From an uncultured delta proteobacterium (GTDB lineage: Bacteria > Desulfobacterota > Desulfobacteria > Desulfobacterales > UBA11574), in the NCBI GenBank assembly GCA_963706295.1, contig CAVPLW010000006.1, forward strand, positions 337,277-401,276: a stretch of DNA of 64,000 nucleotides. Reading direction: 5' to 3'. The notes under the pieces were generated by a model. That model was not told the origin of the DNA. It worked only from the letters and a program-made list of their open reading frames with translations, and did not search any database. How positions within the stretch are numbered: the first letter of the stretch is position 1; each line of letters begins with the position of its first letter. This document shows, one piece after another, positions 1,796 through 59,110 of this stretch. A program made the position numbers and the translations under genes.

Positions 1796-1931
1796 AAAAG
1801 TTTGAAGTTTGAAGTGCCTAAAGTGAGCTAAAGTTGAGGAACACGCTTTCAGCGCAATCAATTATAAATTAAAATTGATAGAATACCTTAACTTTAGGCA
1901 CTTTAGTTCACTTTAGGCACTTTACACTTTT
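1796..1931. repeat. Word-hairpin element, family A copy 1: arms of tandem GTGCCTAAA / GTGAGCTAAA words around an AT-rich centre
   Basis: The left arm aaaagtttgaagtttgaagtgcctaaagtgagctaaagttgagg is an imperfect reverse complement of the right arm ccttaactttaggcactttagttcactttaggcactttacactttt. A second copy lies at 57794..58023. Confidence 0.8.
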
Positions 1932-4333: not shown

Positions 4334-4380
4334 AAAAGCCGTGATGATGGATCCTCATTGTTACGGCTTTTGTTATTTTT
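4334..4380 (+). terminator. Rho-independent terminator candidate after the capD-like gene
   Basis: The stem aaaagccgt (4334-4342) pairs with acggctttt (4363-4371) and is followed by the T-rich tract tgttattttt. Confidence 0.55.
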
Positions 4381-5734: not shown

Positions 5735-5806
5735 AACCGCAAATGGACGCAAATGAACATAAATATTATTATTTTAATTTGTGTTTATTCGTGTTCATCC
5801 GCGGTT
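5735..5806. repeat. Word-hairpin element (GCAAATGAAC-type words)
   Basis: aaccgcaaatggacgcaaatgaacataaata and the AT-rich loop are followed by atttgtgtttattcgtgttcatccgcggtt, an imperfect reverse complement. The element lies just 3' of the beta-helix gene. Confidence 0.7.
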
Positions 5807-5849
5807 TCCCTTATCCTTTTTTTAAATGTAATAATAATTTGAGGTGCTC

Positions 5850-7205
5850 ATGAACAAGTTGTTCGGTACGGACGGGATACGCGGCGTTGCCAATGAATAT
5901 CCAATGACATCTGAATTGGCCATGAAGGTTGGAAAGGCTGTGGCGTCAATTTTCAAGGGACACAATGAGCGATCAAAAATCGTCATCGGGAAAGATACCC
6001 GGCTTTCCGGCGATATGCTGGAACATGCCATAGCATCAGGAGTATGCGCAATGGGGGTTGATGTTTATCTTTCTGGAATTCTTCCAACACCTGGAATTGC
6101 TTATTTAACCGCTTCAACAGGGGCAAATGCCGGCATTGTGATATCTGCATCCCACAACCCATTTTACGACAATGGCATAAAAATATTTAAAGGCGACGGC
6201 TTTAAGCTTTCTGATGAAAAGGAGGCTGAAATTGAACAGCTTGTTTTGAATGAAAACCTGGATCTATCGACAAAGGCGGTTCAGGATACCGGCCGTGTCT
6301 ATGCTATGGCCGACTCCGGAAAAAGTTATGCGAATTTCCTGAAGCACAACGTGCCGGGAAAGAACTGTTTTAAAGGACTGAAAATAATAATGGACTGTTC
6401 AAACGGAGCGACGTTTGACGTGGCACCGGAACTTTTGACCATGCTTGGCGCAGATGTTGATGCACTGTTTGTTCGTCCTGATGGAAAGAACATTAATGAC
6501 AATTGTGGATCCCAGAATCCGGAAGTGCTGAGAAAAAATGTTGTGAATAAAGGGGCTGATATCGGTCTTGCTTTTGACGGAGATGGAGACAGGCTTGTTG
6601 CTGTGGATGAAAAAGGGGGTGTTGCAACCGGCGACCAGATTATTGCGATTTGTGCAAGATACATGAAACAAACTGGGACCCTTAAAGGGAATTGTGTGGT
6701 CAGTACAGTCATGAGCAATTTGGGTCTTCGCCTTAGCTTAAAAGAAATGGGCATAACAAATATTGAGTCCAAAGTAGGGGATCGTCGTGTTGTGGAAAAA
6801 ATGATTTCTTCAGGAGCTGTGTTAGGAGGTGAAGACTCCGGTCATATGATTTTTTTAGACCATCATACCACTGGCGATGGTATTCTTACAGCTTTAAGAT
6901 TAATCGAAATTATGCAAGCAGAATCAAAACCATTGTCAGAGCTTCGCAAAATAATGACCGTATTTCCACAGGTTCTCATAAATGTCGAAGTGAGCCATAA
7001 ACCTGATATAGAGACCGTATCTGAGATTAAAGATGCGATTACATCGGTGGAACGCCGTCTGGATAATGAGGGCAGGGTGCTGGTGCGTTATTCAGGCACC
7101 GAACCGTTATGCAGAGTCATGGTTGAAGGGCCTATCATAGACAAAACCAGAATTTACTGCCAAGAATTGGCTGATGTGATAAAGAAAAATATCGGAAAAA
7201 TATAG
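5850..7205 (+). CDS. glmM: Phosphoglucosamine mutase
   Basis: N-terminal NKLFGTDGIRG, the active-site loop ISASHNPFYDNGIK and the metal-binding motif FDGDGDR are present. GAGG lies 6 nt before the ATG at 5850. Confidence 0.95.
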   Translation: MNKLFGTDGIRGVANEYPMTSELAMKVGKAVASIFKGHNERSKIVIGKDTRLSGDMLEHAIASGVCAMGVDVYLSGILPTPGIAYLTASTGANAGIVISASHNPFYDNGIKIFKGDGFKLSDEKEAEIEQLVLNENLDLSTKAVQDTGRVYAMADSGKSYANFLKHNVPGKNCFKGLKIIMDCSNGATFDVAPELLTMLGADVDALFVRPDGKNINDNCGSQNPEVLRKNVVNKGADIGLAFDGDGDRLVAVDEKGGVATGDQIIAICARYMKQTGTLKGNCVVSTVMSNLGLRLSLKEMGITNIESKVGDRRVVEKMISSGAVLGGEDSGHMIFLDHHTTGDGILTALRLIEIMQAESKPLSELRKIMTVFPQVLINVEVSHKPDIETVSEIKDAITSVERRLDNEGRVLVRYSGTEPLCRVMVEGPIIDKTRIYCQELADVIKKNIGKI

Positions 7206-7270
7206 GAAAGAGAAAAGAGGAATTAGGAAAGAGGAAAAAAGAGCAGAGATCAGAAGTCGGAGGTTGGAAG
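7203..7270. repeat. Purine-rich word tract (AGGAAAGAG / GAAGTCGG words), a half element sharing words with families B and E
   Basis: The tract reads taggaaagagaaaagaggaattaggaaagaggaaaaaagagcagagatcagaagtcggaggttggaag. The 13-mer ataggaaagagaa (7202-7214) recurs exactly as a reverse complement at 54540-54552. agatcagaag(g)tcgg recurs at 38257-38271. Confidence 0.65.
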
Positions 7271-7435
7271 ATAACCCATCAATTAAAAAATATAAGTGGT
7301 TTCAAAATGTTCAATTGGGTTCAAGATCAAGGCGGACTGGAACGGCCAACCGCAGTAATATCGGGAATATTTCGAGGATTGGGCATACCAATCCAACGCA
7401 GAGATTGAATCCCAGAGGAGGTTTTGTAACCACTT

Positions 7436-8137
7436 CTAGTCTCTATTACCTAAAATACGAAGCAGCATAAGAAACAAGTTTATAAAATCAAGATACAACG
7501 TCAGAGCACCTAATATTGCACCCTTTCTGACGGTTCCGCTGTCAAGCCCGTCCGGCTGTGACAGCGCCATGGTTCTGAGCTTCTGTGTATCATAGGCCGT
7601 GAGACCCACAAAAACGACAACACCGATATAACTGACGATCAAACTCATACCAGAATTGCGTACAAAAAGGTTTACGACCGATGCAATCACAATCCCGATG
7701 AGCCCCATAAACATGAACTGTCCCATGGATGTCAGATCACGTTTAGTGACCATACCGTAAATACTGGATACAACAAATGTCGCTGCACAGATAAAAAATG
7801 TTGAGGTTATTGAAGATCTTGTATAGATAAGAAATATTGCTGAAATCGTTGCTCCGTTTAATGCCGCATACAGCACAAACAAAGAGGTTGCGGTTGAAGC
7901 CTGCATTTTGTGGACTCTAGCGCTGATGGTAAAGACAAGAACAAGTTCACCGATGATCAATCCAAAAAAAATGAGCTGGTTTCCAAAGATCAGCTTCAAT
8001 AGGGTTTCGCTGTTTGATACATAAAATGCTACAACACCCGTTAATCCGAGACCGATGGCCATCCAATTATAGACGCTTCGAATAAACTCGTTGACTCGGA
8101 CTTGGGCCCGAGCTTTATTAAGCGGAATAGATTGCAT
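7436..8137 (-). CDS. BAX-inhibitor-1/YccA family membrane protein
   Basis: 233 aa with seven hydrophobic segments. The N-terminus FIRSVYNWMAIGLGLTG and the C-terminus LTLYLDFINLFLMLLRILG are typical of the Bax1-I family. Confidence 0.85.
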   Translation of the reverse strand: MQSIPLNKARAQVRVNEFIRSVYNWMAIGLGLTGVVAFYVSNSETLLKLIFGNQLIFFGLIIGELVLVFTISARVHKMQASTATSLFVLYAALNGATISAIFLIYTRSSITSTFFICAATFVVSSIYGMVTKRDLTSMGQFMFMGLIGIVIASVVNLFVRNSGMSLIVSYIGVVVFVGLTAYDTQKLRTMALSQPDGLDSGTVRKGAILGALTLYLDFINLFLMLLRILGNRD

Positions 8138-19620: not shown

Positions 19621-19740
19621 TGGTTTGGAAGCTTGGAATGTTGGAATATTGGGATTAAGAACGGAATCAACCTATTTATACTGTCAAAAAATCCTTCAAA
19701 CCCATCATTCCAATACTCCTTTATTCCATCATTCCAATTG
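19621..19740. repeat. Word-hairpin element (TTGGAATG words)
   Basis: tggtttggaagcttggaatgttggaatattgggattaagaacggaat pairs with atccttcaaacccatcattccaatactcctttattccatcattccaattg as an imperfect reverse complement around an AT-rich centre. Confidence 0.7.
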
Positions 19741-19778
19741 TGAGCGAAGCGAACTAACTTGCATTAAAAGGTAATAAA

Positions 19779-38187: not shown

Positions 38188-38364
38188 GTTCGGTTCCAGG
38201 TTCAGGGTTCAAAGTTCAAGGGTTATAATATATGAACAGAAGGTGGGAAGGTGAGAAGATCAGAAGGTCGGCTTTTCTCAGACTTTCCAACCTTCTTACG
38301 TTCTAACTTTCTTAACTTCTTAAAAAATAGGAATCTTCAACATGGAACCGTGAACCTTGAACCC
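38188..38364. repeat. Word-hairpin element, family B copy 1 (GGTTCAAGG / GAAGGT words)
   Basis: It shares about 125 nt of near-identity with 55252..55379. The outer arms ggttcaagggtt and ggaaccgtgaaccttgaaccc are inverted. It carries an extra 24-nt word duplication at 38245-38268. Confidence 0.85.
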
Positions 38365-38386
38365 TCAACCTATATTCATATATGCC

Positions 38387-52279: not shown

Positions 52280-52283
52280 GTTA

Positions 52284-52320
52284 GGATTGATGATTTATGA
52301 TTGACGATTTAAGATTGAAA
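52284..52320. repeat. Word element, family E half copy (GATTGATGA words)
   Basis: ggattgatgatttatgattgacgatttaagattgaaa matches 20 of its first 21 nt with the left arm at 54424. It lies in the imuB-dnaE2 spacer. Confidence 0.7.
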
Positions 52321-52361
52321 ATTTAAATAAGCCTTTGTCAATTCTTCCCCAAATAATCAAT

Positions 52362-54380: not shown

Positions 54381-54423
54381 GTGTTGCTCTGAACCTAAAC
54401 GATTTCGGAAGAATTCCCTTTTT

Positions 54424-54611
54424 GGATTGATGATTTATGATTGTTGATTGACGATTGAAGGCTTCGCTCCGGTAATTTAAGTTTTCACTTTTCAACCATC
54501 AATTTTCAATTGATCTGCCGCCGACTCCTATTTCCTTTTTTCTCTTTCCTATTTCAACCTCTGCCGGTTCAATCAACAATCGACAATCATCAATCATCAG
54601 TCGACAATCCC
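54424..54611. repeat. Word-hairpin element, family E full copy
   Basis: The left arm ggattgatgatttatgattgttgattgacgattgaag (54424-54460) is an imperfect reverse complement of the right arm caatcaacaatcgacaatcatcaatcatcagtcgacaatccc (54570-54611). The interior holds a pyrimidine word tract that is the reverse complement of the words at 7203-7240. Confidence 0.8.
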
Positions 54612-55231
54612 ATGGGTCCTCTCTGAACACCGATAACCTTACCCTGGATCAGGATCTCATTGAAATCATACCTGACCGCCTTGTAGGCAGGATTTTCAGG
54701 ACGCAGCTCAATATGTTTTTTTCTGCGAAAAAAACGCTTGACCGTCGCTTCTTCTTGATTGATCAGGGCCACAACGATTTCACCATCTTCGGCAAATTGA
54801 CGCGGCTCACAAATCACCAGGTCTCCATCCAAAATAGCGGCATCCCTCATCGAGTCGCCTTTTACCCTAAGCGCAAACAGGTTTGGACCACGGTACAAGG
54901 TTGAATCGATCACAACGCTCCCACCCCATTCCTGCTGGGCATACAACGGTAATCCAGCAGCGATGTCCCCCACGATAGGCACTTCCCGCCACCGCATGAT
55001 GCCTGCCGTTTTTCGGATGCGATTCAGCAGATGGATCGTGCGGCTGTAACGACCGTCACGTTTGAGAATTCCTTTTTTCTCAAGCGCTTTTATAAGCTGA
55101 GATATCGCCGCATGGCTCACCCCCATCTCAACTGCCGACTGCCGTAAGCTGGGCGCTTTCCCGGTTCTGATAATTTCATGCTCCAAATAGCTAAAAAATC
55201 GTTGCTGTTTTGGAGTGAGTTCTGGTTGCAT
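54590..55231 (-). CDS. lexA: LexA repressor
   Basis: It has a wHTH N-terminus, the Ala-Gly cleavage site (VGDIAAGLP), the Ser nucleophile (VKGDSM) and Lys (ATVKRF). Confidence 0.92.
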   Translation of the reverse strand: MQPELTPKQQRFFSYLEHEIIRTGKAPSLRQSAVEMGVSHAAISQLIKALEKKGILKRDGRYSRTIHLLNRIRKTAGIMRWREVPIVGDIAAGLPLYAQQEWGGSVVIDSTLYRGPNLFALRVKGDSMRDAAILDGDLVICEPRQFAEDGEIVVALINQEEATVKRFFRRKKHIELRPENPAYKAVRYDFNEILIQGKVIGVQRGPMGLSTDD

Positions 55232-55251
55232 GGAACAAATCTCCCTATCAC

Positions 55252-55379
55252 GGGTTCAAGGGTTATAATATATGAACAGAAGGTCGGCTTTTCTCAGACT
55301 TTCCAACCTTCTTCCGTTCTAACTTTCTTAACTTCTTAAAAAATAGGAATCTTCAACCTGGAACCGTGAACTCTGAACC
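55252..55379. repeat. Word-hairpin element, family B copy 2
   Basis: It is near-identical to 38209..38364 apart from the 24-nt insertion in copy 1 and a few substitutions. Confidence 0.85.
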
Positions 55380-55415
55380 TGTAAACGGTTACTATATTTC
55401 TGATTAACATAGCAT

Positions 55416-55451
55416 AATGTAAATGTCAATGTAAATATTATTGTAAAGCTA
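55416..55451. promoter_or_regulatory. Three phased 12-nt direct repeats (AATGTAAATGTC / AATGTAAATATT / ATTGTAAAGCTA)
   Basis: TGTAAA occurs at 55418, 55430 and 55442, an exact 12-nt period, and a fourth time at 55380. The repeats lie in the divergent lexA / metallophosphoesterase intergenic region. Confidence 0.35.
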
Positions 55452-57719: not shown

Positions 57720-57793
57720 GTTACCAAGGAGTACAAATCCTGCTCGACATTATTTACTGATATGGTGACTTCGATATCAAAACGGAAAAAGTT

Positions 57794-58023
57794 ACAAGTG
57801 CCTAAAGTGAGCTAAAGTGAGCTAAAGCCCGCCCTGGTGCGCATTGCTCATATTTTGACCTGACCTATGCTTCATTACAAAAATAACTTTTTGAGTAAAG
57901 AGTTTTGGTAACCGGTCTGGGCCAGGGTTTAAAGAATGTATAGCCAATTATATTTTAATGACAGCGCGTTAGCGCTACCTTAACTTTAGGCACTTTAAAT
58001 CACTTCAAACTTTAGGCACTTGT
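57794..58023. repeat. Word-hairpin element, family A copy 2
   Basis: The termini are a perfect inverted repeat, acaagtgcctaaagt ... actttaggcacttgt. The arms consist of GTGCCTAAA/GTGAGCTAAA words. The centre is longer than in copy 1 but shares a caattata..ttttaatg segment. Confidence 0.85.
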
Positions 58024-58089
58024 GAATCTGTAGGAATCTGCCTGTCCCGTAGCTTCGGAAGCTGGCATTGGGATGGCCTATTAGCACAT

Positions 58090-58848: not shown

Positions 58849-58873
58849 TACCTAAATTGAGCAATTGTTGAGG

Positions 58874-58960
58874 TTGCCGCAGATACAAGGAAGATGTCGT
58901 TTCGCTATAGTTAGCTATGCGGTACGGCATCTGACGCAGTAGATGCGGTAAGATCGGCAA
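58874..58960. other. Long imperfect hairpin (~87 nt) in the ANTAR / wHTH-regulator intergenic region
   Basis: ttgccg pairs with cggcaa, agatgtcgt with acggcatct, and cgctatag with ctatgcg, around the loop ttag. The word atgcggta is repeated at 58917 and 58943. Confidence 0.5.
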
Positions 58961-59110
58961 TCCCGAAGGGTTTCAAATTTAAAAAACATAAATCAATATA
59001 ATTCATTAAAAACAAAAGATATTTTATCACCTTTTAAAATTTGAAACGCTCGGTTTGTGTTTACCATAAATCAACCCTGAATGACAAATAAACTTTTTGT
59101 AAAAAAATAA

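Follow-up and report, generated by a model that had tools for sequence, protein, structure and literature searches.

Intergenic hairpins with arms of inverted tandem 7–10 nt words in an uncultured Desulfobacterales lineage: probable gene-less foldback repeats with relatives in other phyla

Several intergenic regions in a 64,000 nt stretch of DNA from an uncultured Desulfobacterales lineage (herein the window) harbour hairpins whose arms are built of short tandem words, which raises the question of whether this is a genuine recurring architecture and, if so, what kind of element it represents. An array scanner was run on the 9.1 kb of intergenic and 54.9 kb of coding DNA of the window, with 200 dinucleotide shuffles serving as the control. 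It returned 18 intergenic tandem-word arrays against 1.6 ± 1.2 in the shuffles (maximum of 5 in 200), an excess of approximately 11-fold, and the frequency is therefore not that of shuffled intergenic DNA. Coding DNA contributes 9 arrays, such that intergenic density is 12 times higher, and when the relatives' loci are pooled with the window there are 40 arrays in 22 kb of intergenic versus 35 in 145 kb of coding sequence. A period of 7 nt is the most frequent (8 of the 18 intergenic arrays), and the words of the stem arms are generally tandem units of 7–10 nt, contiguous and without spacers; a CRISPR array, with its spaced repeats of 25–40 nt, was rejected on these grounds. A significant complementary array lies downstream of 7 of 14 window arrays, at a score reached in none of the 200 shuffles, and these seven pairs form hairpins with stems of 27–73 bp, for which fold energies on the plus and minus strands are near-equal (e.g. 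−63.6/−61.2 and −53.4/−50.9 kcal/mol).

The architecture described in the initial annotation, namely a word array, a variable centre and a complementary array, in several vocabularies, is thus real and far above chance in the shuffle test. That all loci follow this one plan is too strong a statement, since solo arms account for about half of all arrays, one of the named loci (7203–7270) is unpaired and another (58874–58960) is of a different type with a non-periodic 5′ arm. A preferred location at gene 3′ ends or in divergent gaps is not borne out either, as gap types match the background in the best-sampled family. The earlier observation can therefore be regarded as largely real and partly confirmed, and the interpretation attached to it as partly supported. 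GC skew in the window tracks gene orientation and is uninformative on replication direction.

Hairpin B (5735–5806; hairpins are given here without strand) has arms of approximately 10 nt CGCAAATGRA words at 5735–5765 and 5777–5806 around a 12 nt loop of A and T only, begins 24 nt past the stop of the preceding gene and has glmM downstream. Its fold (−30.3 kcal/mol, z −7.2) slightly favours the transcribed strand, and 10 nt periodicity is present in both arms (p about 0.0008), which bears out its description as a word hairpin. It is kept in three of the relatives' loci (L005, L006 and L008); L007 has a GGACACAGAT-word hairpin in its place, and in L009, where the flanking genes abut, it is absent. 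No further, non-orthologous copies were found in about 0.9 Mb of loci. From the glmM stop codon onward, an orphan arm on the plus strand (7203–7270) consists of GGAAAGAG and GGAATTAGG purine words. Its status as a periodic tract is upheld (period 7, p 0.0002), but not that of a hairpin, there being no hairpin fold (z +1.1) and no complementary partner within 300 nt. The orthologous purine tract in L006 and L008 continues into complementary pyrimidine words and so makes a full hairpin, and in L007 the gap after glmM is only 19 nt; complementary words also occur within the window at 54526–54555. Hairpin D (19621–19765) comprises arms of TTGGAATG words (19621–19660) and CATTCCAA words (19695–19740), with a conserved 3′ flank, TTGTGAGCGAAGCGAACTAAC. 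The long imperfect hairpin at 19621–19740 (z −3 to −3.5) and the significance of both sets of 8 nt words (p 0.0002 and 0.015, respectively) likewise confirm it as a word hairpin. Relatives of hairpin D are present in L015 and L022, and in L015 a CTAAAGTGAG hairpin is nested in the loop of a hairpin-D-family copy. The fourth named locus, 58874–58960, does contain a strong hairpin, but its 5′ arm lacks periodicity (p 0.72) and it forms part of a separate dispersed element of about 210 nt that is not a word array (58852–59060, plus strand; −41.7 kcal/mol on the plus versus −26.2 on the minus strand). This element has copies at other loci in L007, L044 and L002, and no Rfam match.

Word hairpins also lie beyond these loci, at 1798–1930, 38190–38372, 54420–54607 and 57789–58025. 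Fam3 is represented by two of them. Copy A (1798–1930) has a 5′ arm at 1798–1838 (AAGTTTG / CTAAAGTGAG) and a 3′ arm at 1888–1930 (ACTTTAGGC), with 30 nt at 90 % complementarity, a fold of −50.1/−44.8 kcal/mol (z −8.2) and a loop (1839–1887) containing a small GC hairpin and an AT-rich stretch; it has an ortholog in L033 and is absent from the same gap in L006–L009. Copy G (57789–58025) carries CTAAAGTGAG / ACTTTAGGC words in arms at 57789–57828 and 57984–58025 around a centre of approximately 155 nt with a nested hairpin (CCCGCCCTGG...CCAGGG), the whole folding at −78.4 kcal/mol. It is missing from L001, L003 and L004, in which the same gap holds other hairpins, and a nested centre resembling its own occurs in L031. 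Between the two copies the arms are conserved, whilst the centres differ.

The Fam1 copy at 38190–38372 (−63.6 kcal/mol) is a nested double hairpin, with outer arms at 38190–38221 (GGTTCAR) and 38336–38372 (YTGAACC), and an inner hairpin (38238–38323) with arms at 38238–38270 (AGAAGGTN) and 38282–38323 (NACCTTCT). A second, eroded copy (55245–55385) is 95 % identical to 38258–38363, with a single word left in each 5′ arm and with intact 3′ arms; orthologs in L001, L003 and L004 have 3–4 words per 5′ arm, with that of L004 also harbouring a 50 nt GC-rich palindromic insertion in its 3′ arm. The Fam2 hairpin (54420–54607; −53.4 kcal/mol) pairs GATTGAT words at 54420–54459 with ATCAATC words at 54568–54607 over 40 nt at 83 % complementarity, and its 108 nt centre contains further unpaired arrays (54482–54511 and 54526–54555). 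In relatives this gap holds a 3′-arm remnant only (L003), or Fam1-type arrays instead (L001, L002 and L004). An orphan Fam2 arm of GATTGAT words (52281–52327, plus strand) lies directly upstream of the start codon of a minus-strand gene of 999 aa, at a site occupied by a full GATTGAC hairpin in L001, an ATATCCA-word hairpin in L002 and an unrelated 500 nt insert in L003. The remnant 3′ arm of Fam4 (58028–58056, plus strand) consists of ATCTGTR words; this family, of GGACACAGAT-word hairpins, is complete at the 58028 gap in L001 and L004, and upstream of glmM in L007. GCGAAGC mini-hairpin motifs adjoin two arrays, an enrichment that is not significant, and exact-protein look-ups of three window proteins gave no match.

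Genomes with flanking genes at 85–95 % identity thus differ in their word hairpins through gain, loss or swapping, and at the same intergenic sites copies are nested into one another or exchanged for other vocabularies, whilst the ordinary terminator at 4334–4371 is conserved across relatives. Word counts change independently in the 5′ and 3′ arms of orthologs, which points to slippage; the hairpin-templated slippage proposed earlier is a plausible source of copy-number change. Target-site duplications and empty sites could not be read reliably at orthologous gaps, because these have been replaced rather than simply filled and their alignments are poor.

Contrary to the suggestion that the family is defined by structure rather than by sequence, each vocabulary proves to be a dispersed sequence family. 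Arrays of CTAAAGTGAG words occur in at least 120 metagenomic stretches, on contigs of 34–58 % GC, and at least 120 IMG/VR stretches contain GGTTCAR arrays, with the same vocabularies and shared non-repetitive centres recurring at unrelated loci. Amongst the matches listed, convergent pairs outnumber divergent ones by 73 : 1 for the CTAAAGTGAG family (CTAAAGT) and by 74 : 5 for GGTTCAR/GGTTCAA in IMG/VR. For 60 CTAAAGTGAG elements, the complementarity of arms within an element did not exceed that between arms of different elements (permutation p 0.94), and there is therefore no compensatory co-variation. Word hairpins are accordingly sequence families, and not a purely structural class. These 60 elements display neither sharp termini nor consistent target-site duplications, their ends fading word by word. 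IMG/VR scans for GGTTCAR, GATTGAY and GAAGGTG arrays returned many matches, about half of them in long open frames, where some arrays follow a 21 nt coding periodicity. Rfam covariance models gave no match at the gathering score and nothing relevant at E ≤ 1.

A TnpA-REP-like Y1 transposase acting in trans had been put forward as a possible agent. No enzyme or other neighbour gene recurs among 635 ORFs beside 120 elements, and the sole recurrent cargo is a PF05635/TIGR02436 ‘four helix bundle’ gene (23S-rRNA intervening-sequence protein), which is enclosed by CTAAAGTGAG arms in L020, L121 and L123. Homologues fetched by protein identity display the same enclosure in five distinct contexts, and where the proteins are at least 85 % identical, under the names Brocadiales/Scalindua and Deltaproteobacteria, the CTAAAGTGAG arms abut the start and stop codons. 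Distant homologues from Bacteroides, cyanobacteria, Chloroflexota and Treponema also have inverted word arrays, in vocabularies that differ from CTAAAGTGAG; those of Bacteroides, for example, sit between (AATTGAC)n and (ATTGTCA)n. Amongst ten plasmid-borne homologues (cyanobacteria, Chloroflexota, Spirochaetota and Bacteroidota), seven reach a score of 15 or more for inverted arrays, in other vocabularies, whilst those of Pseudanabaena, Bernardetia and Chondrinema do not. Inverted word flanks accompany 12 of 15 scored PF05635 genes, compared with 13 of 582 control genes (p 5.5 × 10−11), and in a same-plasmid control of 34 CDS they were present on both four-helix-bundle genes and on none of the 32 others. 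Arm vocabulary varies with the protein subfamily, as is expected if gene and arms travel together.

The CTAAAGTGAG vocabulary around these genes is that of Fam3 in the window (1798–1930 and 57789–58025), and it is shared for Fam3 only. PF05635 genes are lacking from the window itself and from about 100 kb of its close relatives. Searches of 2.1 Mb of GGTTCAR- or GATTGAY-rich contigs, and of the surroundings of GGTTCAR, GATTGAY and GAAGGTG arrays in IMG/VR, recovered none either, so that those vocabularies could not be tied to the gene. Thousands of proteins belong to the PF05635 family, for which we know of no role outside DGRs, nor of any recombinase or nuclease activity. It is related to the DGR protein Avd and has a solved structure (PDB 2RLD). 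The gene-bearing form of the word element thus encodes a protein that is not a known transposase.

With regard to known systems, the STRR sequences of heterocystous cyanobacteria are described as direct repeats and have been used for fingerprinting. They resemble the window arrays in being intergenic tandem 7 nt arrays that come in several vocabularies per genome and in hypervariable numbers of copies, and the window does carry intergenic tandem units of about 7 nt well above expectation (18 versus 1.6 arrays). As far as we are aware, neither an arrangement in inverted pairs nor an association with a gene family forms part of the STRR definition; cyanobacterial heptamer arrays were, however, found herein as inverted pairs around four-helix-bundle genes. 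The window differs in belonging to Desulfobacterales, in its words and in having 8 and 10 nt periods as well. Short, intergenic, hairpin-forming dispersed repeats also include REP/BIME, MITE, Nostoc SDR and Foldback elements, of which BIMEs are mosaics, Nostoc SDRs nest within tandem heptamers and the arms of eukaryotic Foldback elements consist of tandem sub-repeats. As opposed to REP, BIME and MITE sequences, the window arms are built of words and not of one palindrome, with no RAYT or transposase amongst the neighbours and no defined termini.

Whilst the initial annotation recognised no named repeat class, there are precedents beyond STRR. In Xanthomonas, GGGAATC heptamers form opposite-strand array pairs that are always convergent, number 70–75 per genome, are intergenic and differ in length between close species; they were read as G-quadruplex forming, and a cargo gene was not noted (Rehm et al. 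2015, PMC4692102). That system uses one vocabulary, rich in G, compared with several in the window. In Geobacter metallireducens, three classes (1–3) of ‘global regulator binding sites’, annotated as putative regulator sites, are paired on opposite strands, each with 3–5 tandem 7–9-mers, at variable spacing and in dozens of copies (Aklujkar et al. 2009, PMC2700814). This is a related deltaproteobacterial lineage, although its vocabularies differ from those of the window, where convergent opposite-strand arrays at variable spacing are similarly found (7 of 14 paired). The TAACTGA repeats of Beggiatoaceae, cyanobacteria and Bacteroidetes, for which a role in translational regulation was proposed, are almost all direct, with one inverted case (MacGregor 2015, PMC4679880); they are comparable as intergenic heptamer arrays across distant phyla that often end beside start codons, and the Chondrinema four-helix-bundle gene is flanked by TAACTGA-like words. 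Finally, the 23S rRNA intervening sequences (IVS) of Leptospira and Coxiella are selfish insertions whose inverted-repeat termini form a long stem that RNase III cuts, and an S23p/PF05635 ORF lies in the loop (PMC4990558). Gene-bearing CTAAAGTGAG cassettes share this layout of complementary termini and a PF05635 ORF in the loop, whereas the window elements lie between protein-coding genes, have tandem-word arms and mostly occur as copies without an ORF.

Since CTAAAGTGAG arms also flank the PF05635 gene, the hairpins could represent versions of a selfish element that lack the gene. We consider it probable, albeit by no means secure, that the word hairpins are miniature gene-less foldback repeats of a broad IVS-like class, with arms of inverted tandem 7–10 nt word arrays, and our best reading relates them to cyanobacterial STRR and the Xanthomonas and Geobacter heptamer pairs. 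The window hairpins would then stand to PF05635 cassettes as MITEs do to full transposons. Judging from stem length, elements transcribed within operons could have their 27–73 bp stems cut by RNase III, as in rRNA IVS, which would make insertions tolerable and incidentally set mRNA ends, and the pentameric PF05635 protein may recognise the tandem words; both mobility and RNase III processing are what we infer here. Set against the IVS-like reading are the lack of PF05635 genes in the window and the close relatives covered, the restriction of the PF05635 tie to Fam3, the exclusively orthologous copies of hairpin B, the 3 of 15 PF05635 genes without clear inverted flanks and the lack of sharp termini or target-site duplications. 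The PF05635 gene could also enter pre-existing hairpins instead of bringing its own arms.

This last scenario, in which word hairpins have their own origin and are landing pads rather than parts of PF05635 cassettes, the small gene preferring their loops, appears unlikely. Nested insertions in loops and arms are common, gene-less hairpins far outnumber gene-bearing ones (about 3 of 60 CTAAAGTGAG elements and 0 of 74 GGTTCAR pairs have the PF05635 gene), and in L148 and Treponema a complete gene-less word hairpin lies immediately upstream of such a gene, all of which would suit it; the arms shared at the very start and stop codons of highly similar proteins, and the tracking of protein subfamily by vocabulary, argue for the gene and arms as one cassette.

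Quite unlikely, too, is that the arrays are host cis-regulatory sites whose words bind a global DNA- or RNA-binding regulator, with inversion serving regulation. Conservation of the word sequence and not of pairing would fit such a role, as would arrays that often abut start codons (also PMC4679880) and the annotation of similar paired arrays in Geobacter as regulator sites (PMC2700814). Yet the same housekeeping genes in close relatives stand beside other vocabularies or none, the 120 loci have no gene function in common, periods of 7–8 nt are out of phase with the DNA helix, and solo and eroded arms are frequent.

It is improbable that the hairpins are a pure mutational by-product, with slippage making arrays and intramolecular template switching inverting them in situ, without mobility or a gene. 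Variation in word number among orthologs and between arms, the orthologous-only copies of hairpin B, and fuzzy ends without target-site duplications can all be read in this way, but not so the identical vocabularies and shared centres at unrelated loci on contigs of widely different composition (34–58 % GC), the near-absolute chirality within families or the specific association with one gene family.

It is very improbable that the hairpins are classical MITEs, or REP/BIME elements, that depend on a DDE or Y1 (RAYT) transposase supplied in trans, for which the words would be subterminal binding sites. Their dispersal in intergenic DNA, the conserved arms and varying centres of Fam3 copies A and G, and a likeness to eukaryotic Foldback elements and transposons bearing subterminal repeats speak in favour of this; nevertheless, the 60 CTAAAGTGAG elements lack the defined terminal inverted repeats and target-site duplications of MITEs, no transposase, Y1 or otherwise, recurs beside the 120 elements, at least eight vocabularies would require as many enzymes, and the arms are AT-rich word arrays, whilst a REP is a short GC-rich palindrome with a conserved 5′ tetranucleotide.

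Ordinary rho-independent terminators, or mRNA-stabilising hairpins kept by RNA-structure selection, can be set aside almost entirely: despite strong folding, the position of many hairpins just past stop codons in co-directional gaps and the slight bias of hairpin B to the transcribed strand, stems of 27–73 pairs have no adjacent T-run, pairing does not co-vary, divergent gaps hold hairpins too, and a terminator scan found a true, strand-biased terminator at 4334–4371 (−21.0/−11.9 kcal/mol), conserved unlike the word hairpins, of which it called none whole and matched only a 5-pair sub-hairpin in the 3′ arm of hairpin B (5789–5804) with no adjacent U-tract.

Returning to the word hairpins as gene-less foldback repeats, cyanobacterial arrays of heptamers and other short words have been in the literature for 35 years, joined later by those of Xanthomonas, Geobacter and giant sulfur bacteria, and we know of no accepted origin or function for them. 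The architecture is now seen in an uncultured Desulfobacterales lineage and is tied statistically to PF05635/TIGR02436 across phyla, such that the origin of the arrays and the role of this protein merge into one testable hypothesis. Tentatively, and with more doubt than confidence, the inverted word arrays of all these phyla (STRR, GGGAATC, Geobacter, TAACTGA and those of the window) might be footprints of a single class with a PF05635-encoding autonomous form, in which an Avd-like pentamer would bind approximately one word per subunit and RNase III would liberate the hairpin RNA as an intermediate in movement or regulation; a reverse transcriptase might copy it, much as happens with the help of Avd in DGRs. 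If true, this would provide a function for a very large family of ‘hypothetical’ proteins and an origin for heptamer repeats. At a practical level, the elements break assemblies and alignments at intergenic gaps and would place long double-stranded RNA stems inside operons.

Degenerate arrays of 7-, 8- or 10-nt words lie in the intergenic DNA of the window (approximately 9.3 kb; overall G+C content 41 %), often with a complementary array 10–160 nt downstream, as seen at the four loci named in the initial annotation and in the other tandem-repeat matches read. An array scanner detected 18 arrays in this DNA versus 1.6 ± 1.2 in dinucleotide shuffles (maximum 5, n=200), and nine within six times the amount of coding DNA. 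A complementary downstream array accompanies seven of 14 arrays at a score reached by no shuffle, such that the proposed plan of a word array followed by its complement does occur above chance. The hairpins so formed contain 27–73 predicted pairs, with folding z-scores of −4 to −8 and significant arm periodicity in every paired example, and nesting of elements inside one another is seen. Two of the four loci named as word hairpins did not bear this out: 7203–7270 is periodic but unpaired in the window genome (z +1.1), and 58874–58960 folds strongly, but its 5′ arm lacks significant periodicity (p 0.72).

Known RNAs can be set aside, as an Rfam search gave no match to the word hairpins. Nor are the hairpins explained by ordinary rho-independent termination: a terminator scan recovered a textbook example at 4334–4371 (17-bp stem and T-run) and called no word hairpin whole, its sole match there being a 5-pair sub-hairpin at 5789–5804. 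Whilst the terminator is strand-biased (−21.0/−11.9) and kept in four relatives (L006–L009), the word hairpins fold near-equally whichever strand is taken and lack such conservation.

This variability is apparent from nine syntenic loci of relatives, with flanking genes 85–98 % identical to those of the window, the alignments of which break exactly at the word-array gaps. Syntenic matches also assign the window to an uncultured Desulfobacterales/Desulfobacteraceae lineage. The hairpin at 5735–5806 is retained in three relatives, L007 has a GGACACAGAT-word hairpin instead and L009 has none, and in L006 and L008 the purine tract following glmM (7203–7270) is completed by pyrimidine words into a full word hairpin. 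The GATTGAT hairpin at 54420–54607 survives as a remnant in L003, with other arrays in its place in L001, L002 and L004; the gap at 52280 has four different contents in four genomes, and the CTAAAGTGAG element at 57789–58025 is absent from all three relatives compared. The number of words varies among orthologues, and the 5′ and 3′ arms change independently. Orthologues of the LexA-like gene (54590–55231) in L001 (4431–5069) and L004 (4219–4857) are bracketed by two inverted arrays of the Fam1 type (the family with outer GGTTCAR arms), scoring 32–36, in a composite-transposon-like arrangement. Adjoining this gene is a 12-nt AATGTAAATGTC repeat (window 55416–55447; L001 4163–4200; L003 4254–4289; L004 1055–1084) which, unlike the word hairpins, is conserved in all orthologues and may therefore be a genuine operator. 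At L004 ~905–955 (window ~55300), a 50-nt GC-rich palindrome, CGCCCGCCCGCC...GGCGGGCAGG, is inserted in the Fam1 3′ arm, suggestive of a REP-like hairpin that has nested among the words.

The suggestion of a class defined purely by structure is not upheld, as vocabularies recur as sequence families: three are present twice each within the window, and an 18-nt CTAAAGTGAG-type word (Fam3) matches at least 120 stretches of metagenomic DNA, whose contigs range from 34 to 58 % G+C. Within the matched stretches listed (at least 120) plus the window, totalling 788 kb, 239 CTAAAGTGAG arrays form 73 convergent pairs and one divergent, with centres of 4–442 nt; GGTTCAR arrays are comparably abundant in IMG/VR contigs (74 convergent pairs, five divergent). 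The CTAAAGTGAG elements are 96 % intergenic, with gap types in proportion to background; neither sharp ends nor target duplications were found for them, and their arms complement their own partner no better than the arms of other elements (p 0.94). Amongst all paired arrays, ~13 of 15 independent vocabularies have purines or G predominating in the 5′ arm and pyrimidines in the 3′ arm, a handedness that strand reversal leaves unchanged. Mini-hairpin motifs, GCGAAGC/GCTTCGC and C(TTCG)G, are found repeatedly just within or alongside arrays (window 19744 and 54461, L002, and many Fam3 centres), with no significant enrichment within the window alone.

The search for a co-occurring enzyme, as initially proposed, yielded no recurrent family amongst 635 ORFs neighbouring 120 CTAAAGTGAG elements from the matches listed. 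ORFs within long-centred elements encode only PF05635/TIGR02436 proteins, the four-helix-bundle family of 23S rRNA intervening sequences (IVSs). The best 120 matches to these are all at least 84 % identical, and those with a named source derive from Brocadiales, Scalindua, Planctomycetes and Deltaproteobacteria; two of them, fetched by protein identity alone, occur in several contexts with the same words abutting both the start and the stop codon. A distant Bacteroides subfamily (PDB 2RLD type), inserted between araD and araA and also between aminotransferase and DAHP synthase genes, has (AATTGAC)n on one side and (ATTGTCA)n on the other. Ten plasmid-borne homologues (cyanobacteria, Chlorohelix, Treponema, Bacteroidota) all occupy intercistronic gaps; for seven of them, inverted arrays in yet other vocabularies reach a score of 15 or more, those of Pseudanabaena, Bernardetia and Chondrinema being the exceptions. 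Adding three loci of the CTAAAGTGAG type and two from Bacteroides gives 15 scored PF05635 genes, of which 12 possess such flanks, compared with 13 of 582 control genes (p 5.5 × 10−11); in a same-genome control on 50 kb of Nostoc punctiforme pNPUN01, inverted flanks are confined to the two four-helix-bundle genes among 34 CDS. Several PF05635 genes reside in defence operons (L162 and L165, from cyanobacterial plasmids, and L160, L163 and L167), lying upstream of cas1, in the interval from cas2 to cas1, beside a Swt1 HEPN gene, or with a helicase gene on one side and a methylase gene on the other. TAACTGA-like words surround that of the Chondrinema plasmid (L169), TAACTGA being a repeat known from Beggiatoaceae, cyanobacteria and Bacteroidetes. 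Heptamer arrays are also on record from cyanobacteria under the name STRR.

Heptamer arrays, inverted or tandem, have been published for Xanthomonas (PMC4692102), Geobacter (PMC2700814), and Beggiatoaceae and others (PMC4679880); a full-text literature search returned no paper linking such arrays with PF05635, although works beyond its reach could exist. In the classical 23S rRNA IVS, a terminal-inverted-repeat stem is cut by RNase III and the loop carries an S23p ORF (PMC4990558), a layout like that of the PF05635 genes within inverted word arms; PF05635 is also related to the Avd protein of DGRs (PMC10053308). On account of this layout and relationship, the window's hairpins are read as gene-less miniature members of an IVS-like PF05635 class, directly supported only for the CTAAAGTGAG hairpins and extended by analogy to the other vocabularies. 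No PF05635 gene is present within the window or close relatives, nor among GGTTCAR- or GATTGAY-rich contigs totalling 2.1 Mb. As a serious rival, the gene may simply favour insertion into hairpins that already exist. Were the hairpins miniature IVS-like elements, RNase III would be expected to cut their stems, a PF05635 protein might bind the tandem words, and the elements may themselves be mobile.

Two further elements were noted. A ~170-nt element (7276–7445) separates the purine tract from the convergent Bax1-I-like gene, with a 41-nt imperfect inverted repeat (7284–7324/7405–7445) and no Rfam match, conserved in L005 and L009 and missing from L006–L008. Apart from the word arrays, a dispersed ~210-nt element (58852–59060) holds the 58874–58960 hairpin, has copies at L007 6121–6320 (minus strand), L044 1530–1656 and L002 ~5790–6000, and displays short terminal inverted repeats (TAAATTGAGC...). 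Its hairpin is far stabler on one strand, at −41.7 kcal/mol compared with −26.2 for the other; the element, which has no relation to the word arrays, is a candidate for either a small RNA gene or a MITE.
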